Below are positions 7,244 to 44,642 of a stretch of DNA of 64,000 bases, piece by piece (within the stretch, counting starts at the first letter, position 1; each line of letters begins with the position of its first letter). The DNA comes from Nitrospirota bacterium (GTDB taxonomy: Bacteria; Nitrospirota; UBA9217). The notes under the pieces were generated by a model. The model was given only the letters and a program-made list of their open reading frames with translations, had not been told where the DNA came from and made no database searches. The DNA lies in contig CAVVUN010000015.1 of assembly GCA_963751455.1 (NCBI GenBank), positions 1,152,001-1,216,000 of the forward strand. The letters run 5' to 3'. The position numbers and the translations under genes were made by a program.

Positions 7244-9643
7244 TTACCCGGGAAGCTCTTCCCAGAAATCCGAAACTTCCTTTAAAATGCCATCGGAAAC
7301 GCGTTCAGTCACAAGGGACTCGAACCAGTCCTTCGGCATGGATCGGGTATAGTCGGACTGAACAAAGCGCTTGTCCATGAGGATTATGAGGCCACGGTCC
7401 GTTTCCGAGCGGATGACCCTCCCTGCGGCCTGGACAGCTTTCGCCATTGCCGGGATCGTGTACGCGTATTCGAAGCCCTGGCCGTAGCGGCGTTCGTAGT
7501 ACTCGCGCATTTTTTCGCGTTCGAGATCGAAATTCGGAAGCGGAGGCCCGACAACAAAGACGCCGATTGCCATATCCCCGGGATAGTCCACGCCCTCCGA
7601 AAACATGCCGCCCTGCACTCCAAACAGGATGGTAGGGGTTCCCAGCCGCAATTGCTCCAGCACGGCCTCCACACGGGGCGCTTTCATATCGCGCTCCTGC
7701 TTCAGTACGATGAAACCCACGGACGGCTGGAACAGGCCGAGCACCCGCTCGAGGAACTCGAAGCTCGGGAAGAAGGCGAAATAATTTCCGCGGCGCAAAG
7801 CAATTATCCGTTGAATGACATCCGCTATCCTGGGATAATTGCGCTCGCGGTCCGGGTATCGGGTCGAGACCTGCGGAATGATCAGGAGTTTGCGGTTTTC
7901 CCTCGGAAAAGGACTTTGAAATTCGGCGGTCTTAACGGCATCGGGATCCAGTCCGCAGAGCCTGGCATAATAATCGAACGGCTTTATTGTGGCGGAAAAA
8001 GCGACCACCTGTGCGTATGCATCATAACAGTCCTTCAGCATGGCGGACGCGTCGCAGCAGGTGATCTTGACAATGCCGCCGGTGGGATGGGGATGAAAGG
8101 TCACGAAGAATTCCTGCCTGTCCGGGTTGGCCGCGTATGCGAGCGCTTCCGTGAACTCGGACCAGGAGAAGCAGAGCCGCATCACGACGTCGCGCGGCTG
8201 GATTTCCAGGTCCGAATCGAGATACCGGGAAAGGAAGGCGCGCAGTTTTACATCCTGCTCCAGGAACGGGTCCAGCGGAGGAGTGATGGCCGAGGGTCTT
8301 GAATCGTCTTCCGGCCTGCAGGAAACGATCGCCTCTCTGCAGCCGTCCAGAAGGTCTTCGGCCTCGTGTTGGAACGTTGAAGGCAGCGCCTTGATCTGGT
8401 CCCGCATTAACTCGAGGGTGATCGTGGACAGGGAGGGAGAGTAATAATCCATGGAGCGGGAAGGAAGGTTCTGTGCTTCGTCGATCACCAGGTTCGGTTT
8501 CCCGGCCTGGTCTATTCCCGTCATCGCAAGCCTCCCGAACGACGAGCGCGGGGCAAAAACATAATTGTAATCGCAGATAACGACGTCCGCTTCCTGGGCC
8601 GCATCAAGCTGCAGTTCGAAGGGGCAGACCTGGTACTGCTCGCCCAGGTCACGGAACAAGCGGGCCCTTAATTTCTTCTTCCCGGCGAGCAGGTCCAGGA
8701 TGCCGTGCTCGTGGAGCTTTGAGTAGTAATCGCTCGCGTATTCGCAGTAGTCCGGGTTGCAGAGGGGCTCGTTCTTAAAGCAGATCTTTCCTTTTGCGGT
8801 TATGGTGAGAGCTTTGATCTTCGAGCCCGTCTCCTGAAAGCGGATGACCGCGTCCTCGGCCACGGAATGCTGGCTGTTCTTGGGCGTTATATAGACAGTC
8901 TTCTGGCCGCGTGCCAAGGCCTCTTTCAGCACCGGATAGAGAACTCCTGCGGTTTTACCGAGTCCTGTCGGCGCCTGGATCAGCATGCGGCTGCCTTCGC
9001 GCATTCCCTGTTCTACAGTCTCGATCAGCTCGAACTGGCCGGGGCGCGGGTCCTCGAAGGGGAAGGTGAAGGCGGTGGCGAGCTTCCTGCGGCGGGCCGC
9101 GCGCTTCTCGGCCTTTTGCGACTCGAGGACGAGCTCATCGAGGCGCGCTCCAAGCCATTTCTCGTACAACGGAAGATCCAGGGCCAGTTCGAGATCCCGG
9201 GAATGCCTGGTGCGGCTGGAAACGAGATGAAAGAAAAGCGCCGGAAGGACCTTGTGCTCCAGCCAGGAGAAGTAGCCGTACGTCAGGAGCTGGAGGCAGT
9301 AAGGGTGGGCCATGGGATCGCCGGAGAGAGCGGAGGCGAGCATGCGGATATTGAAAGCGGTCTTGATTTCCTCTATCTTGGGAGGCTCGCGCCTGAAAAT
9401 GCCGTCCATCCGTCCGTCGATCCTGAACCTGTATCCCGAGCGCTCGAATTCCCGGCTGACCGGCACTTCCCGTTCGTACGACGGATCAGCCTTGGCCCTT
9501 TTGTTTTGAACGCGCATGTGGATCTCGCGGCCTTCCAGTGCCGCCTGTCCGTACCCTGAATGCGCCTCGATGCTCCCGGTCCGGGGAACCGGAAATGCGA
9601 AATCTCGGACGGGGAGGGTGATGAGTTTCATTTCAAGCGTCAT
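7244..9643 (-). CDS. DinG/Rad3-family ATP-dependent DNA helicase with N-terminal PD-(D/E)xK nuclease-like domain
   Basis: GRMDG...IEEIKT nuclease motif, Walker A APTGLGKT, FeS cysteines (C-FKNEPL-C-NPDY-C...CPFE), IDEAQN, FSEGVD, QAAGRVIRS. Confidence 0.9.
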   Translation of the reverse strand: MTLEMKLITLPVRDFAFPVPRTGSIEAHSGYGQAALEGREIHMRVQNKRAKADPSYEREVPVSREFERSGYRFRIDGRMDGIFRREPPKIEEIKTAFNIRMLASALSGDPMAHPYCLQLLTYGYFSWLEHKVLPALFFHLVSSRTRHSRDLELALDLPLYEKWLGARLDELVLESQKAEKRAARRRKLATAFTFPFEDPRPGQFELIETVEQGMREGSRMLIQAPTGLGKTAGVLYPVLKEALARGQKTVYITPKNSQHSVAEDAVIRFQETGSKIKALTITAKGKICFKNEPLCNPDYCEYASDYYSKLHEHGILDLLAGKKKLRARLFRDLGEQYQVCPFELQLDAAQEADVVICDYNYVFAPRSSFGRLAMTGIDQAGKPNLVIDEAQNLPSRSMDYYSPSLSTITLELMRDQIKALPSTFQHEAEDLLDGCREAIVSCRPEDDSRPSAITPPLDPFLEQDVKLRAFLSRYLDSDLEIQPRDVVMRLCFSWSEFTEALAYAANPDRQEFFVTFHPHPTGGIVKITCCDASAMLKDCYDAYAQVVAFSATIKPFDYYARLCGLDPDAVKTAEFQSPFPRENRKLLIIPQVSTRYPDRERNYPRIADVIQRIIALRRGNYFAFFPSFEFLERVLGLFQPSVGFIVLKQERDMKAPRVEAVLEQLRLGTPTILFGVQGGMFSEGVDYPGDMAIGVFVVGPPLPNFDLEREKMREYYERRYGQGFEYAYTIPAMAKAVQAAGRVIRSETDRGLIILMDKRFVQSDYTRSMPKDWFESLVTERVSDGILKEVSDFWEELPG

Positions 9644-9839
9644 GTGAGTATACTTCGCATCTTCGTGATAAGTGAGAACCCATTTTTTTATCCTTCATGC
9701 TAAGGCAATGCGGCATAAGTGTCAAGCGATCACGCATTCTGCGGGGGGCCGATCTCGCCCCTAAAATTTTATTGCATTTGCAGCATAATTTTATTATCCT
9801 CAGGAAAAGTGACGAATTGCTCGGAAAGAGGTTTTTTCC

Positions 9840-10724
9840 ATGAACGATGAAAAGAAAAATGCGGCAGCTGCTCCGGTCTGAAAGCCGTCAGGCGGCAAAG
9901 GTGATTGCCGCGTAGATATGGGGAACACTTTTTCCTCGTGCGCTCTTCCCCTCGGGCCAGGGACAACGGGCTTGGGCTTCGCTGCAGGTGCGGGCACGGA
10001 TAACGACATCCGCACCGCGATCAGGAAAAAATATTCAGAAGTCGCGGCTTCCGCTGCCGGAAAGTTCCAGTATCCTGTCGGCAGGGACGGCGCATACGGC
10101 CTCGCATATGATCCTGTTTTGATAGAGGCAGCCGGGCCGGAGTTTCTAGATTCATTTTGCGGTGTGGGAAATCCTTTTTCCCTCGCTGCAATCCAGCCAG
10201 GCGACAGGGTTCTGGATTTCGGATGCGGTGCTGGCTTCGATCTATTCGTTGCAGCCAAACTGGCAGGAAGCTCGGGCCGCGTTTGTGGAATAGATTTGAC
10301 TGAACAAATGACCAGGCGGGCAGAGGAGAACCTCTTTCGGCTGGGAATCAAGAACTTTGAGGTCAAAAAGGTCGATTCTGAAACCGTACCGTATGAAAAC
10401 AATACGTTTGACGTTGTGATATCGAATGGAGTTATAAACCTGTCCCCTGATAAGGCGGCAGCTTTCAAGGAGATAATCCGCGTTCTGAAGCCGGCCGGAA
10501 GATTTCAATTTGCGGATGTTGTACTCGAGAAAGAGCTGCCGGAAAATATCGCAGGAAGTCTCGAAGCATGGTCCCAGTGAATCGGCGGAACTGTCCCGGT
10601 CAGGGACCAGGTAAGGCTGCTGGAAGAAGCGGGATTCGAAAAACCGGAATTCAAGGGATATACGGGGTATTGGACGTCGGCTTATACTGTCGGAGCTTTA
10701 TTTAAAGCGAGGAAAAAGCTTTAG
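9840..10724 (+). CDS. ArsM (arsenite methyltransferase)-like SAM methyltransferase, predicted selenoprotein with two Sec
   Basis: ATG 9840 (SD GAGG) is in frame with ORF 9918..10580. UGA at 9879-9881 and at 10578-10580 (WSQ-U-IGG, where ArsM-type proteins have W-x-x-C-I-x-G). The frame stays open to TAG 10722-10724. Motifs SFCGVGNP, VLDFGCGAGFD and SNGVINLSPDK. Confidence 0.85.
9882..9911 (+). promoter_or_regulatory. Bacterial SECIS-like hairpin 1
   Basis: 10 nt after UGA 9879: perfect stem GCGGCAA/TTGCCGC with loop AGGTGA. Confidence 0.7.
10581..10610 (+). promoter_or_regulatory. Bacterial SECIS-like hairpin 2
   Basis: 10 nt after UGA 10578: CTGTCCC-GGTCA-GGGA(C)CAG, a bulged stem with a G-initial loop. 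Confidence 0.75.
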
Positions 10725-10782
10725 CCACCAGAAGAACCATTGCAAATTGCAAAGTGAAAATTAGTTGTTTTTAGTTTGCTTT

Positions 10783-11495
10783 TCCAGACACCCCTGCATC
10801 CCGTGAGCAACGTCCGCGCTTTACATGACCGGAAATCGCGTCGGTAAATCACAAAGCATGCATGCGCGTGCGAAGCTCAGCGCAATGGGATGCTGTGTCG
10901 ACCGGTAAAAAATAAAACTCTCTGGCATGTTTGCGCGGCGGTGTGAACGGCGGTGCAGAAAAAAGACAAGGGTCTCGAACTTCATGCCATGAAGTCCACG
11001 ATCCTTGGTTTTTTCGGGCAGCCTCGGTGCTCTGCTGTGCTTTGCATGCCCGATTCACTTTTAGGGGTACAGCATTTTGCGATTATTCCTGCAGCACTTT
11101 CCCTGCGGCCGTGCTGCCTTGAGCCCTGTAGTAATCGGTATTCGATGGCGGCATGCCCGACGCACAGCTATCGCGACCGAGCTGCCCCGGGGTTTGGGGT
11201 AACCTTTAAGCCAGAGCAGTTAAAGCAACCACTGGGTCAGTTTTTATTTTCTTTTGCCTTTCCAGAACCCCTGCATCCCGTGAGTAATGTCCGCGCATTA
11301 CATGACCGGGACTCGAGTCGGTAAATTACAAATCATGCCTGCGCGTGCGTAGCTCAGCGCGATGGGCTGTTGAAATGACACGTAAAACAGAAGACACTGT
11401 GTCATGTTTGCGCGGCGATGCGAACGGCGGTGCAGAAAAGAGACAAGGGTCTTGCACTTCCTGGCATGAAGTACACGATCCTTTGTTTTCTCGGC
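10783..11495. repeat. Tandem mosaic palindromic repeat D-C-D (period about 478 bp), lacking A/B insertions
   Basis: TTCCAGA(C)ACCCCTGCATCCCGTGAG... recurs at about 10782 and about 11260. Reverse complement of the 22387-23270 blocks without the inserts. Confidence 0.85.
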
Positions 11496-11589
11496 AGTGT
11501 TATATCTCCTTAGCTGCGAAATCCTCTTCCCGTTTATTGCTAACAATGGTATAGTTGCGGCCAGGCGACAGCCAGTCGTCCGCTCGACC

Positions 11590-18365: not shown

Positions 18366-19337
18366 ATGGCCAAAAACAGATTCTCGGATAAGGTTGCTTC
18401 AGTCAGACAGGAACCGCTTGCAGCCGATGCCATAAAGGCGTTGCAGGTAAACCTCGGCTACGCCTGCAATATGTCGTGCAAGCATTGCCATGTATCGGCG
18501 GGCCCCGCACGGATCGAGATAATGGACCGAACCACGATCGATCTCGTTATGGCTGTTCTGCACGAACATCGCATAGAAACGCTGGATATTACCGGCGGCG
18601 CGCCGGAAATGAATCCTGGTTTCAGGGCGCTCGTATCGGAAGCGAAGAAGCGGGGAACCAGGGTCATCGTACGCACAAACCTGACCGTTTTTTCTGAACA
18701 GGGGATGGCTGACCTGCCGGAATTCTACCGAGACACCGGTGTTGAATTGATTGCTTCGCTTCCCTGTTACCTCGAGCAGAACGTGGCCGCTGTACGAGGC
18801 AGGGGCGCGTTTGAAAAAAGCATCGAAGCCCTTCGCCGCCTGAACCGGCTGGGCTTCGGCCTGGGATCGCCGGAGCGGCCTCTGAACCTGGTATACAATC
18901 CCTCCGGACCGTTTTTGCCGCCCGCACAGGCAGGACTCGAAGCCGACTATAAGCGTCAATTGAAGGACCAATACGGGATCACGTTCGACCGGCTATACTC
19001 GTTCGTGAACATGCCGCTGGGGAGGTTCAGGGACCGACTGGTTCATAGCGGCGATTACGAGAGATATTGCGCCATGCTCGAATCCTCGTTCAACCCGGAT
19101 ACGCTGGACCGGCTGATGTGCAGGTCGCTCGTAAGCGTCGGTTGGGACGGCAGGCTCTACGACTGCGATTTCAACCAGGTCCTGGGGATACCGGTAACGC
19201 AGGCAGGCAGCCATATTCGAGGCTTTGATCATGATGCGCTTTCCCGAAGGCGCATCGCTGTGGACAATCACTGCTTCGGCTGCACCGCGGGCCAGGGGTC
19301 AACGTGAATGGGCGCAGTGACCGGGCCGGGCGCCTGA
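18366..19337 (+). CDS. arsS: Radical SAM (seleno)protein ArsS, arsenosugar-biosynthesis family
   Basis: LQVNLGYACNMSCKHCHV, LDITGGAPEMN, MCRSLVSVGWDG.LYDCDFNQ, HCFGCTAGQGST-UGA(19305)-MGA. The UGA sits where the family has GSSCGG. Next stop at 19335-19337. Confidence 0.85.
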
Positions 19338-22244: not shown

Positions 22245-23400
22245 GTGATTTGTGATTTACCCCGCAGCAGTCCCGCCTGCAGCGGACTGCTGCGGGGTCA
22301 TGTAATGCGCGGCCGCTGTTTATGGGATGCAGCGGGTTCTTGGAAAAAGCATGTGAGAAGCAAAAGAGGGTTTTAAGCTTTCCCCAGTACGAAGAACATC
22401 AATTAGGCATGCAAAGCACGGCAGAGCACCGAGCTGCCCGAAATAACAAAGGATCTTGCCTGCGGCCAGTGGTTATGAGGTACTTGATTCCCATCACGCG
22501 CTTCAAAGCGAGATGGTACGACAATGAGTCTAAGCAGTGCATAGCGCGAATACAGGCTGGACGTCATGCCAGGATGTTCAAGATTCTTGTCTTTTTTCTG
22601 CACCGCCGTTCGCAACGCCGCGCAAACATGCCAGTTTGTTTTTTTAGTTTCACTTGTCGACACGGCGTACTCATTGCGCTGAGCTCCGCACGCGCATGCA
22701 TGCTTTGTGATTTACCGACTCGTTTCCCGGTCATGTAAAGCGCGGACGTTGCTCACACCCTATACTCGCGGTTCCACTCGTAACTATCGGGTGCAGGCGG
22801 GATGCAGGGGTGTCTGGAAAAACAAACCAAACACAACAAATTTGAACTTTCCAATTTGCAATTTTCAATGTTCTGCAGTATGCAATTGCTTTGGGTTAAA
22901 AGTTTCCCTAAAACCCCGGGGCAGCTTGGTCGCGATAGCTGTGCGTCGGGCATGCCGCCATCCAATATCGATTATTGCAGGCTCAAAGGAGCACGGCCGC
23001 AGGGTAAGTGCTGCAGGGAATAACCGCAAAGTACTGTACGAAGAACGTCAATCAGGCATGCATAGCACAGCAGAGCACCGAGCTGCCCGAAAAAACCAAG
23101 GATCTTGCCTGCGGCCAGTGGTTATTAGGTCCTTGATTCCCATCACTCGCTTCTAAGCGAGATGGTACGACAATGAGTCTAAGCAGTGCATAGCGCGAAT
23201 ACAGGCTGGACGTCATGCCATGAAGTTCAGGATCCTTGTCTTTTTTCTGCAGTCCACTCACATTGCCATGCAAGCATGCTACTGTGTTATCCGGCTCTTT
23301 CTGATATAGAAGGCTACCCTCAGCCTGCGGCCAGCGTTTATGAGTGCCTAGCGCGAATGCAGGCTGCACTCACGCTTCGCTTAAAAAACGCTCCGCTGTG
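22245..23400. repeat. Largest mosaic palindromic repeat array (modules C and D with nested A and B)
   Basis: 22387-22600 recurs at 23036-23250 (period about 650). A(B) at about 22458-22558 and 23107-23207, A at 22757-22798 and 23323-23365. Confidence 0.88.
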
Positions 23401-43956: not shown

Positions 43957-44328
43957 GTGCAGATGAAAAAGGCCATTGCAGTATCAGTTCTCGTTCTTTC
44001 CCTGTGTCTGCCCGGTGCAAAGACATACGCGCAGCCGCAATCTTCCACACGATCTGAAACGGAACAGCAACAGAAAAAGAACAGAGAGTTCTCGGGAAAA
44101 GTGGAAGTGTTCGTGACATCATGGTGTCCGTACTGCACCAAACTCCAAAAATTTCTGAAGGCCAAGGGAATACGCTATACCGCTTACGATATCGAGACGG
44201 ACACAAGCGCCCGTAAGCGGTATAACGAATTAGGCGTCAGGGGAGTTCCCGTAACGAGGATAGGTTCTTTGATCATACAAGGATATAATCCTGATGCAGT
44301 TCTGAAAGCAATCGAGAGCGAACAATGA
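43957..44328 (+). CDS. Exported glutaredoxin-like protein
   Basis: Signal peptide, WCPYC, GVP. Confidence 0.88.
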   Translation: MQMKKAIAVSVLVLSLCLPGAKTYAQPQSSTRSETEQQQKKNREFSGKVEVFVTSWCPYCTKLQKFLKAKGIRYTAYDIETDTSARKRYNELGVRGVPVTRIGSLIIQGYNPDAVLKAIESEQ

Positions 44329-44345
44329 GACACTAAGGAGAGCTT

Positions 44346-44642
44346 ATGAGTGATAGGGGTCTGAAAAAAGCAGTGATCATCGGCGCGGCGCTCGGAGCGC
44401 TCTTCACCCTCGGTACGGCCCTGTCCATGGACATCTTTTTTTCGGACACCTTTCAGGGCACATGGCGTGACGCTGCGGCCAAAGATGTGACAAAGATGTT
44501 CGGACCCGGCTGCGGCGGGAATTATTTTGCCGTTACGCTAGTCCTCGTTCTCGTGATGGGCTTCCTCGCCGGCTTCGGTGCTTTTCTCGGCGCCGCCGCA
44601 GGTATGATCATGAACCGGTTCTTTAAACTCCTGGCAAAGTGA
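44346..44642 (+). CDS. Hypothetical membrane protein
   Basis: 98 aa with two Gly/Ala-rich TM helices, SD AAGGAG. Confidence 0.75.
   Translation: MSDRGLKKAVIIGAALGALFTLGTALSMDIFFSDTFQGTWRDAAAKDVTKMFGPGCGGNYFAVTLVLVLVMGFLAGFGAFLGAAAGMIMNRFFKLLAK

Follow-up and report, generated by a model that had tools for sequence, protein, structure and literature searches.

The window, by which we mean the whole stretch of 64,000 nucleotides analysed here, contains a gene whose product is, judging from comparison of homologous sequences, very likely a 294-residue double selenoprotein. Both in-frame UGA codons of this gene family are very probably read through as selenocysteine, one (predicted Sec14) in a short N-terminal arm and the other (predicted Sec247) in a methyltransferase core. 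The predicted protein is built like ArsM, yet is not a canonical ArsM. That it methylates a metalloid, most likely arsenic, and uses the Sec14 arm as a swinging selenol is in our view as probable as not. The coordinates of all features are compiled in Table 1.

Table 1 Features of the putative double-selenocysteine methyltransferase gene in the window.
Feature	Position	Strand	Remarks
Full CDS, ArsM-like SAM methyltransferase	9840-10724	+	294 aa plus TAG, read through two UGA
Shine-Dalgarno-like AGAGGT	9827-9832	+	7-8 nt ahead of ATG 9840 (sequence)
Leader ahead of first UGA	9840-9878	+	13 codons; length conserved, sequence loose
UGA-1, predicted Sec14 in U-x-P	9879-9881	+	Pro16 at 9885-9887; TGA in 70/80 genome and 55/80 metagenome loci
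SECIS-like hairpin 1	9892-9911	+	7-bp stem, loop AGGUGA; starts exactly 10 nt past UGA-1
Low-complexity linker, predicted disordered	9912-9998	+	Met27 (9918), Cys34; pLDDT <50 for residues 1-49
Cys107 of SFCGVGNP	10158-10160	+	invariant; position of CmArsM Cys72 is two residues further on
SAM-binding motif I LDFGCGAG	10212-10235	+	PF13847; D126, G128, G130 and G132 invariant
Gly197 (SNG for SNC)	10428-10430	+	at the arsenic-binding CmArsM Cys174 site; alignment with 4fr0/4kw7/5evj
UGA-2, predicted Sec247 in W-S-Q-U-I-G-G	10578-10580	+	TGA in 80/80 genome and 79/80 metagenome loci
Region after UGA-2, absent from the 220-aa call	10581-10724	+	47 codons; helix plus two strands of the fold
SECIS-like hairpin 2	10591-10610	+	loop GGUCA; 5-bp core stem 10593-10607, 12 nt past UGA-2

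Reading frame and conservation of the two UGA codons

With translation table 11, the ORF at this locus is 9918-10580 and encodes 220 residues. Translation of 9840-10724(+) gives TGA at codons 14 and 247 and, beyond the latter, 47 further codons up to TAG, which confirms the claim of an earlier note on this DNA that the 220-residue ORF opens in both directions through UGA to 294 residues. The Shine-Dalgarno (SD) sequence that the note placed ahead of the long frame was found as well (Table 1), and in 53 of the 71 arm-bearing loci an upstream start is preceded by an SD match of at least 4 nt. An ATG lies exactly 13 codons upstream of the arm UGA in 90 of 119 distinct arms; an ATG in the stretch from the first UGA to the core is present in only 15 of the 71 loci. 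Ahead of Met 9918 (Met27), no SD of at least 4 nt was found, and re-initiation at this codon was rejected, Met27 being neither conserved nor preceded by an SD. Scans for a promoter and a terminator remained at chance level.

The conservation of the two codons was assessed in the best 80 of 293 loci from a genome collection and the best 80 of 585 loci from metagenomes; these sets overlap, 119 of their 125 arms being distinct. Both codons recur as TGA in the homologues at the frequencies given in Table 1, and no Cys form was seen at either site among the 160 loci. The ten genome loci lacking the arm TGA comprise seven armless ones, two that are cut by contig ends (L079 and L082) and one with TCG (L056). 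In the metagenome set, the core TGA was recognised by pattern in 75 loci and by eye in four, the remaining one being truncated; for the arm TGA the corresponding numbers are 54 and one, with 20 loci armless and five truncated. The TCG (Ser) of L056, an arm-clade homologue with an ATG 13 codons upstream (L056:44-130), is 80 nt away from the end of a contig and could be artefactual; a genuine TCG would make this homologue a naturally occurring U14S variant.

The arm keeps its frame with the core across tether lengths of 18-48 codons. The dN/dS ratio, estimated from 24 disjoint pairs, is 0.20 both for the core and for the region after UGA-2, compared to 0.46 for the leader and 0.39 for the linker, and the residues encoded 3' of UGA-2 are modelled by AlphaFold with a pLDDT of 91-98. 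The pattern named earlier as speaking against the long frame, homologues starting at Met 9918 and ending at 10580, was not found, since the homologues have different starts and continue past 10580.

SECIS-type hairpins

According to the earlier note, a hairpin follows each UGA at exactly 10 nt. This holds for hairpin 1; hairpin 2, with its core at 12 nt, begins 10 nt past UGA-2 only when a bulged extension of 2 bp is included. Hairpin 1, which doubles as coding sequence for G18-R24 including Cys23, has a folding energy of -14.2 kcal/mol over 42 nt (z -2.4 versus shuffles; z -3.1 over 28 nt). Hairpin 2 alone does not go beyond shuffles (z -1.2). It co-varies in the homologues, the pair +13/+27 being A-U in 35, G-C in 30 and G-U in 11 of 79 distinct rows, and its loop G+19 is invariant. 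The bSECIS model, as outlined in an excerpt of PMC13188914, has a loop 16-37 nt past the UGA, a G in the first two loop positions and an MFE of -7.5 or below; both window hairpins agree with it, with loops from +18 and energies of -12.1 and -9.8 kcal/mol over 28 nt. An Rfam scan over 9600-11500 gave no match.

The homologues were searched with our own SECIS scanner (not bSECISearch), which takes a stem of at least 5 pairs and a loop at +16 to +24 with a G. It detected a hairpin downstream of UGA-1 in 60 of 71 rows and downstream of UGA-2 in all 81 rows, compared to a background of 10.9% of 12,115 control codons. In 200 rounds of synonymous recoding, the mean was 14.3/71 (maximum 23) for UGA-1 and 18.0/71 (maximum 28) for UGA-2. 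Synonymous change is reduced over both hairpins (24 disjoint pairs), with a pS of 0.17 for SECIS 1 versus 0.28 for the core. A single fixed register for SECIS 1 was dropped because ungapped covariation was weak; there are two registers, with loops from +18/19 and +22, and SECIS 1 was judged sequence by sequence. Since both UGA codons and their hairpins are conserved and synonymous change is suppressed, read-through of both UGAs is very likely.

Selenocysteine machinery of the genome

Of the Sec genes that the earlier note wished to see in the genome, selA, selB and selC are intact, the tRNA-Sec being found by ARAGORN at C1:369631; selD is present, yet frameshifted in the assembly. This gene contains a TGA of its own and changes frame near C2:130510; a further selD copy over the cut-off was not found in the genome. 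When 908 ORFs from other loci were used as queries, five frame-switch junctions, including that of selD, were counted against approximately 92 intact matches. Because other conserved genes switch frame too, the frameshift in selD is probably an assembly error. In all five relatives tested selD is unbroken. The TGA form of the methyltransferase gene occurs in 13 of 61 related genomes, all of which have selB, and in none of the 19 of these 61 without a selB match, with the reservation that related genomes are not independent. Further UGA genes of the genome are those for ArsS, two TsoC-like proteins and an FlpD-family protein. A second tRNA-SeC call of ARAGORN (G000 C13:3947-4041) has an atypical sequence, lies on a 9-kb contig and is less convincing.

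Methyltransferase core

The core is a class I methyltransferase (Pfam PF13847, E 2e-33; NCBIfam). Its best NCBIfam models are NF041537, NF047649, NF041536 and NF008823, every one of which is matched below its cut-off (204.5 bits versus 263 for NF008823), and the gene is the genome's only strong match to the ArsM-like model NF008823. The AlphaFold model has a mean pLDDT of 87.5, with values below 50 for residues 1-49, and the top Foldseek matches of this model are CrArsM, CmArsM and AS3MT. In an alignment with 4fr0, 4kw7 and 5evj, Sec247 aligns to CmArsM Cys224. The assignment of UGA 10578 to the cysteine of the ArsM W-x-x-C motif was therefore correct; what had been overlooked is the replacement of Cys174 by Gly197. 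Glycine occupies this position in 81 of 81 rows of the genome set, the window included. In addition, Val109 occupies the position of CmArsM Cys72, with Cys107, invariant in 70 rows, close by (Table 1), and no Cys is aligned to CmArsM Cys44.

In canonical ArsM, Cys174 and Cys224 bind arsenic, and Cys44 and Cys72 keep the site reduced (excerpt of PMC6138428); residues 72, 174 and 224 are reported to be conserved in all ArsM sequences retrieved in another study (PMC5552862). Since Cys174 is missing in the whole group, canonical ArsM chemistry cannot be assumed for it, and the canonical As(III) chemistry implied by the earlier note is not supported. The armless single-Sec relatives (7 of 80 genome and 20 of 80 metagenome loci) are also without Cys174. 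Among the matches listed (150 best cluster representatives), there is also a broader SNG group that has Cys at the position of Sec247, and distant SNG relatives have one Cys only, with Ala-Val-Gly-Cys at the four sites in at least 24 alignments.

N-terminal arm

The arm follows a common plan of Met, usually 12 loose residues, U, any residue, Pro, SECIS-encoded residues and a variable tether, the distance from U to the core being 18-48 codons in 71 loci. Proline is found at +2 of the arm UGA in 104 of 119 distinct arms, and because all four of its codons are used (41/23/23/17), it looks like a constraint at the level of the protein. Cysteines are less regular: among the 119 arms, Cys occurs at -7 in 24, at -1 in nine and at +9 in 65, and 28 arms have none of these. 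Cys23 is the +9 residue and is encoded by the 3' strand of the SECIS 1 stem. The cysteines of the arm had been stressed as a key feature, which is misplaced, since Cys23 is written by the SECIS stem, and neither it nor Cys34 is conserved. Ten arms searched alone against NCBIfam gave no match. As armless single-Sec relatives exist, the arm is a predicted accessory, not an obligatory part, of the enzyme.

In two loci, L060 and L105, a TsoC-like Sec domain with its own UGA and hairpin is fused in frame ahead of the arm, and the arm UGA and its hairpin are kept. The domain scores 45.6 against NF045708 (cut-off 45) in L060 and is matched by tblastn only in L105. A GTG lies 13 codons ahead of the arm UGA in L060, from which its arm-methyltransferase could start separately; there is no such codon in L105. 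Both apparent triple-Sec TsoC-arm-methyltransferases (L060:3719-4810 and L105 of genome G012) are located downstream of an ArsR-type gene, and the L060 fusion is followed by selD, a membrane protein, which we take to be TauE/SafE-like, and a partial second copy of the methyltransferase. The genome of the window (G000) has two free TsoC-like UGA genes (C2:117411 and C2:128642), one of them approximately 1.3 kb from selD, and its cluster C2:128642-131900 comprises a TsoC-like gene, a methyltransferase-like gene, the frameshifted selD and a membrane protein of the L060 type.

Three comparisons, with the tail of NF047649 members, with the extension of HgcA and with the TsoC fusions, point to a chemical role for Sec14, which we regard as rather probable. 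The earlier suggestion that the arm could be a separate element for metalloid capture or delivery is plausible, and the U-x-P motif and the TsoC fusions speak for it indirectly.

Genomic neighbourhood

The gene stands alone in the window, divergent from a DEAD_2-type helicase gene, and is followed by a dispersed repeat and a DUF218 gene. Two 84%-identical copies of this intergenic repeat of approximately 250 bp lie right after the gene (10769-11017 and 11247-11494); genome-wide, up to about 30 overlapping blastn matches per 50-bp bin were obtained, including at approximately 22560-23100 of the window, and the scan of 9600-11500 gave no Rfam match to the repeat. Of 115 candidate neighbours, 70 were scanned, as were 97 of 98 read-through candidates plus five from the window. 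In relatives the neighbours vary and are mostly unrelated, with a minority of loci having Tso, SaoL, MerT, HMA-domain, ArsR-type or selD genes; the neighbours scanned did not include an ars operon. TsoA-like Sec genes, below the cut-off, lie just upstream in L014, L017 and L046, a MerB-like SaoL gene, over the cut-off and likewise with a UGA read-through, lies upstream in L080, a MerT-like gene is found in L058, and an HMA-domain gene follows the methyltransferase in a cluster of six loci. In L017, the canonical YGCG motif is found in a further, separate ArsM-like gene, and downstream there is a rhodanese-like neighbour with a UGA read-through. In L029 (3141-3962), the frame of a VKOR gene runs past a UGA into a C-x-x-U-like stretch.

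Elsewhere in the window, an ArsS-family radical SAM gene (18366-19337, +; TIGR04167, 428 bits versus a cut-off of 300) has a TGA at 19305 in its C-terminal GCTAGQGST-U motif. The hairpin there passes our own scanner and fails the fold z-test; this gene likely encodes another selenoprotein. A link between it and the methyltransferase gene 7.6 kb away is not supported, ArsS being present in 34 of 36 family genomes versus 12 of 36 for the methyltransferase gene and the two genes being far apart in the relatives checked. In a glutaredoxin-like gene (43963-44346, +; CPYC), the hairpin at the TGA is at chance level, and this TGA is probably a normal stop. An HgcA-like ORF of the genome (G000 C15:162077-163190; NVWCAAGKG, presumably the HgcA motif) showed no in-frame N-terminal Sec extension.

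Possible mechanism and alternative explanations

In the mechanism that we propose, SelB would read both UGAs, and Sec247 together with Cys107 would hold a soft metalloid next to SAM. The Sec14 arm could then reach in on its tether of 18-48 residues and supply the third ligand or a reducing selenol, as Cys174 and Cys44 do in canonical ArsM; it might thereby capture the substrate or reduce the product or the site. A thioredoxin-like selenoprotein of the TsoC type may re-reduce the arm. The AlphaFold model gives the arm no position. Arsenic is favoured as the main substrate because of the fold only, and we put the chances for and against it as equal.

Genuine termination at both UGAs, with the 220-residue ORF from Met 9918 as the product, agrees with the standard gene call, but is extremely improbable in view of a Met27 that is neither conserved nor preceded by an SD, of 47 codons past UGA-2 that show the conservation of the core and encode the remainder of the fold, and of SECIS hairpins at both UGA sites. 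We also regard it as very unlikely that the family is real and the gene silent in this organism for want of Sec, its only selD being truly broken: selD is indeed split into two frames near C2:130510 with no second copy over the cut-off, but frame switches occur at other places of the assembly (five junctions with that of selD included, versus approximately 92 intact matches), selA, selB and tRNA-Sec are intact, the UGA genes for ArsS, the two TsoC-like proteins and the FlpD-family protein persist, and selD is in one piece in all five relatives.

The main rival for the arm is a selenium checkpoint, in which UGA-1 aborts translation after 13 codons instead of leaving a dead product of 246 residues, and Sec14 has no chemistry. 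It accounts better for the fixed leader, the ATG being 13 codons ahead in 90 of 119 arms while the tether varies between 18 and 48 codons, and for flanking residues that are loose or, past +4, follow the SECIS; the lack of a Cys version of UGA-1 is shared by the core site and does not discriminate. We nevertheless hold it to be improbable, as it fits neither the U-x-P nor the fusions: Pro+2 is kept with free wobble, the U-x-P of NF047649 members at the C-terminus cannot act as an early checkpoint, and the TsoC fusions keep UGA-1 some 80-90 codons in and behind an earlier UGA. A somewhat less improbable, still unlikely, alternative concerns the substrate of the same double selenoprotein, which would be a selenium or sulfur species, mercury or another soft metal. 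The missing Cys174 would suit it, as would the L060 TsoC fusion directly before selD, the TsoA-like (L014, L017, L046), SaoL (L080), MerT-like (L058) and HMA-domain (six-locus cluster) neighbours, the separate canonical-motif (YGCG) ArsM-like gene of L017 and the resemblance of the arm to the HgcA Sec extension in its excerpted description. However, only a minority of the 80 loci have such neighbours, arsenic methyltransferases are the best matches in structure and sequence, and no other gene of this genome, which encodes ArsS as well, matches NF008823 strongly.

Going beyond the swinging arm, one may speculate that C-x5/6-U-x-P is a portable selenol 'grabber' module, used at either end of metal(loid) methyltransferases (UXPK-star tail, N-terminal arm, HgcA) and here replacing Cys174/Cys44 and recharged by TsoC, an idea that we consider doubtful. 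If it were true, a selenium-based relay methylating arsenic, selenium or mercury in bacteria of anoxic sediments would have been missed by annotation.

In databases, the proteins of this clade are truncated at both ends or have their UGA translated as Trp, and a metalloid-methylating type of enzyme that is widespread in Nitrospirota and Desulfobacterota-type genomes would hence be invisible or mislabelled as ArsM. If arsenic is methylated without Cys174, a chemistry other than the four-cysteine cascade is needed, and arsenic methylation would be tied to the supply of selenium; should selenium or mercury be the substrate, these genes are wrongly labelled 'arsenite methyltransferase'. The series of arm-bearing, tail-bearing and armless proteins constitutes a ready comparative test of the role of the second Sec.

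Comparison with known systems

The protein shares with ArsM/AS3MT (CmArsM 4FR0, CrArsM 5EVJ; NF008823) the fold, the SAM motif, the N-terminal helix and the Cys224-equivalent, and differs from canonical ArsM by Gly at Cys174, Val at Cys72 (with Cys107 two residues earlier) and the lack of Cys44. A single-Sec 'UxxG' form of ArsM, credited to Fomenko et al. 2007, has been listed since that year and has been joined since 2025 by three ArsM-like families with two or three Sec, according to an excerpt of PMC13188914. The earlier note was hence right that Sec-containing methyltransferases of this kind have been reported, and the novelty that it implied is lower, double-Sec ArsM-like families being already in NCBIfam; the form with the N-terminal arm falls below their cut-offs. 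This form is absent from the table rows in that excerpt of PMC13188914 and from the NCBIfam matches, and no description of it was found in the literature searched, although Haft & Tolstoy 2025 may mention it.

A close parallel is NF047649, a family of methyltransferase/UXPK-star double selenoproteins that the excerpted text (PMC13188914) attributes to Haft & Tolstoy 2025. It has the same core (S/AFCGVGNP, SNG, W-x-x-U-I-G-G) and two Sec, the second in a tethered U-x-P. In NF047649 this Sec is found four residues from the C-terminal end, whereas that of the window protein is residue 14. Members over the cut-off were found in three of 301 genomes (L132-L134) and end in C-x-P-G-G/S-x-U-x-P-K-stop; the window protein scores 278.7 (cut-off 460) and ends at residue 294 without a U-x-P-K tail. 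The earliest-branching arm subclade sampled has C-x6-U-x-P, close to the NF047649 tail. NF041537 (ArsM/AhpD) and NF041536 (ArsM/DUF2284) likewise combine the Sec-bearing core with an appended Sec module, but the additional Sec of these families is located past the core (in L136, L139 and L140 in a C-terminal AhpD-type extension), where the window protein has none; its scores of 279.2 (cut-off 510) and 264 (cut-off 575) come from matches that cover model positions of approximately 10-249 only. In a careful tree of 44 rows, the arm and TsoC-fusion rows form one branch, with a support of 94/91 that is just short of the star of the tree tool, sister to the armless single-Sec rows, and the UXPK-star and AhpD fusions are on a separate branch (98/92); a quick tree of 123 rows agrees. 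Because the arm rows are on one branch and the UXPK-star and AhpD fusions on another, the arm was apparently gained once, and independently of the C-terminal tail.

HgcA is a corrinoid membrane protein and offers an analogy, which we do not extend to homology. It methylates a metal and has, at its N-terminus, a short extension that had been overlooked and contains U-x-P, described as a hidden PCUGP extension with Sec at residue 14-15 in an excerpt of Haft & Gwadz (10.1101/2022.07.06.499078). The C-U pair of HgcA is invariant in that excerpt, whereas a Cys precedes U in just 9 of the 119 arms described here.
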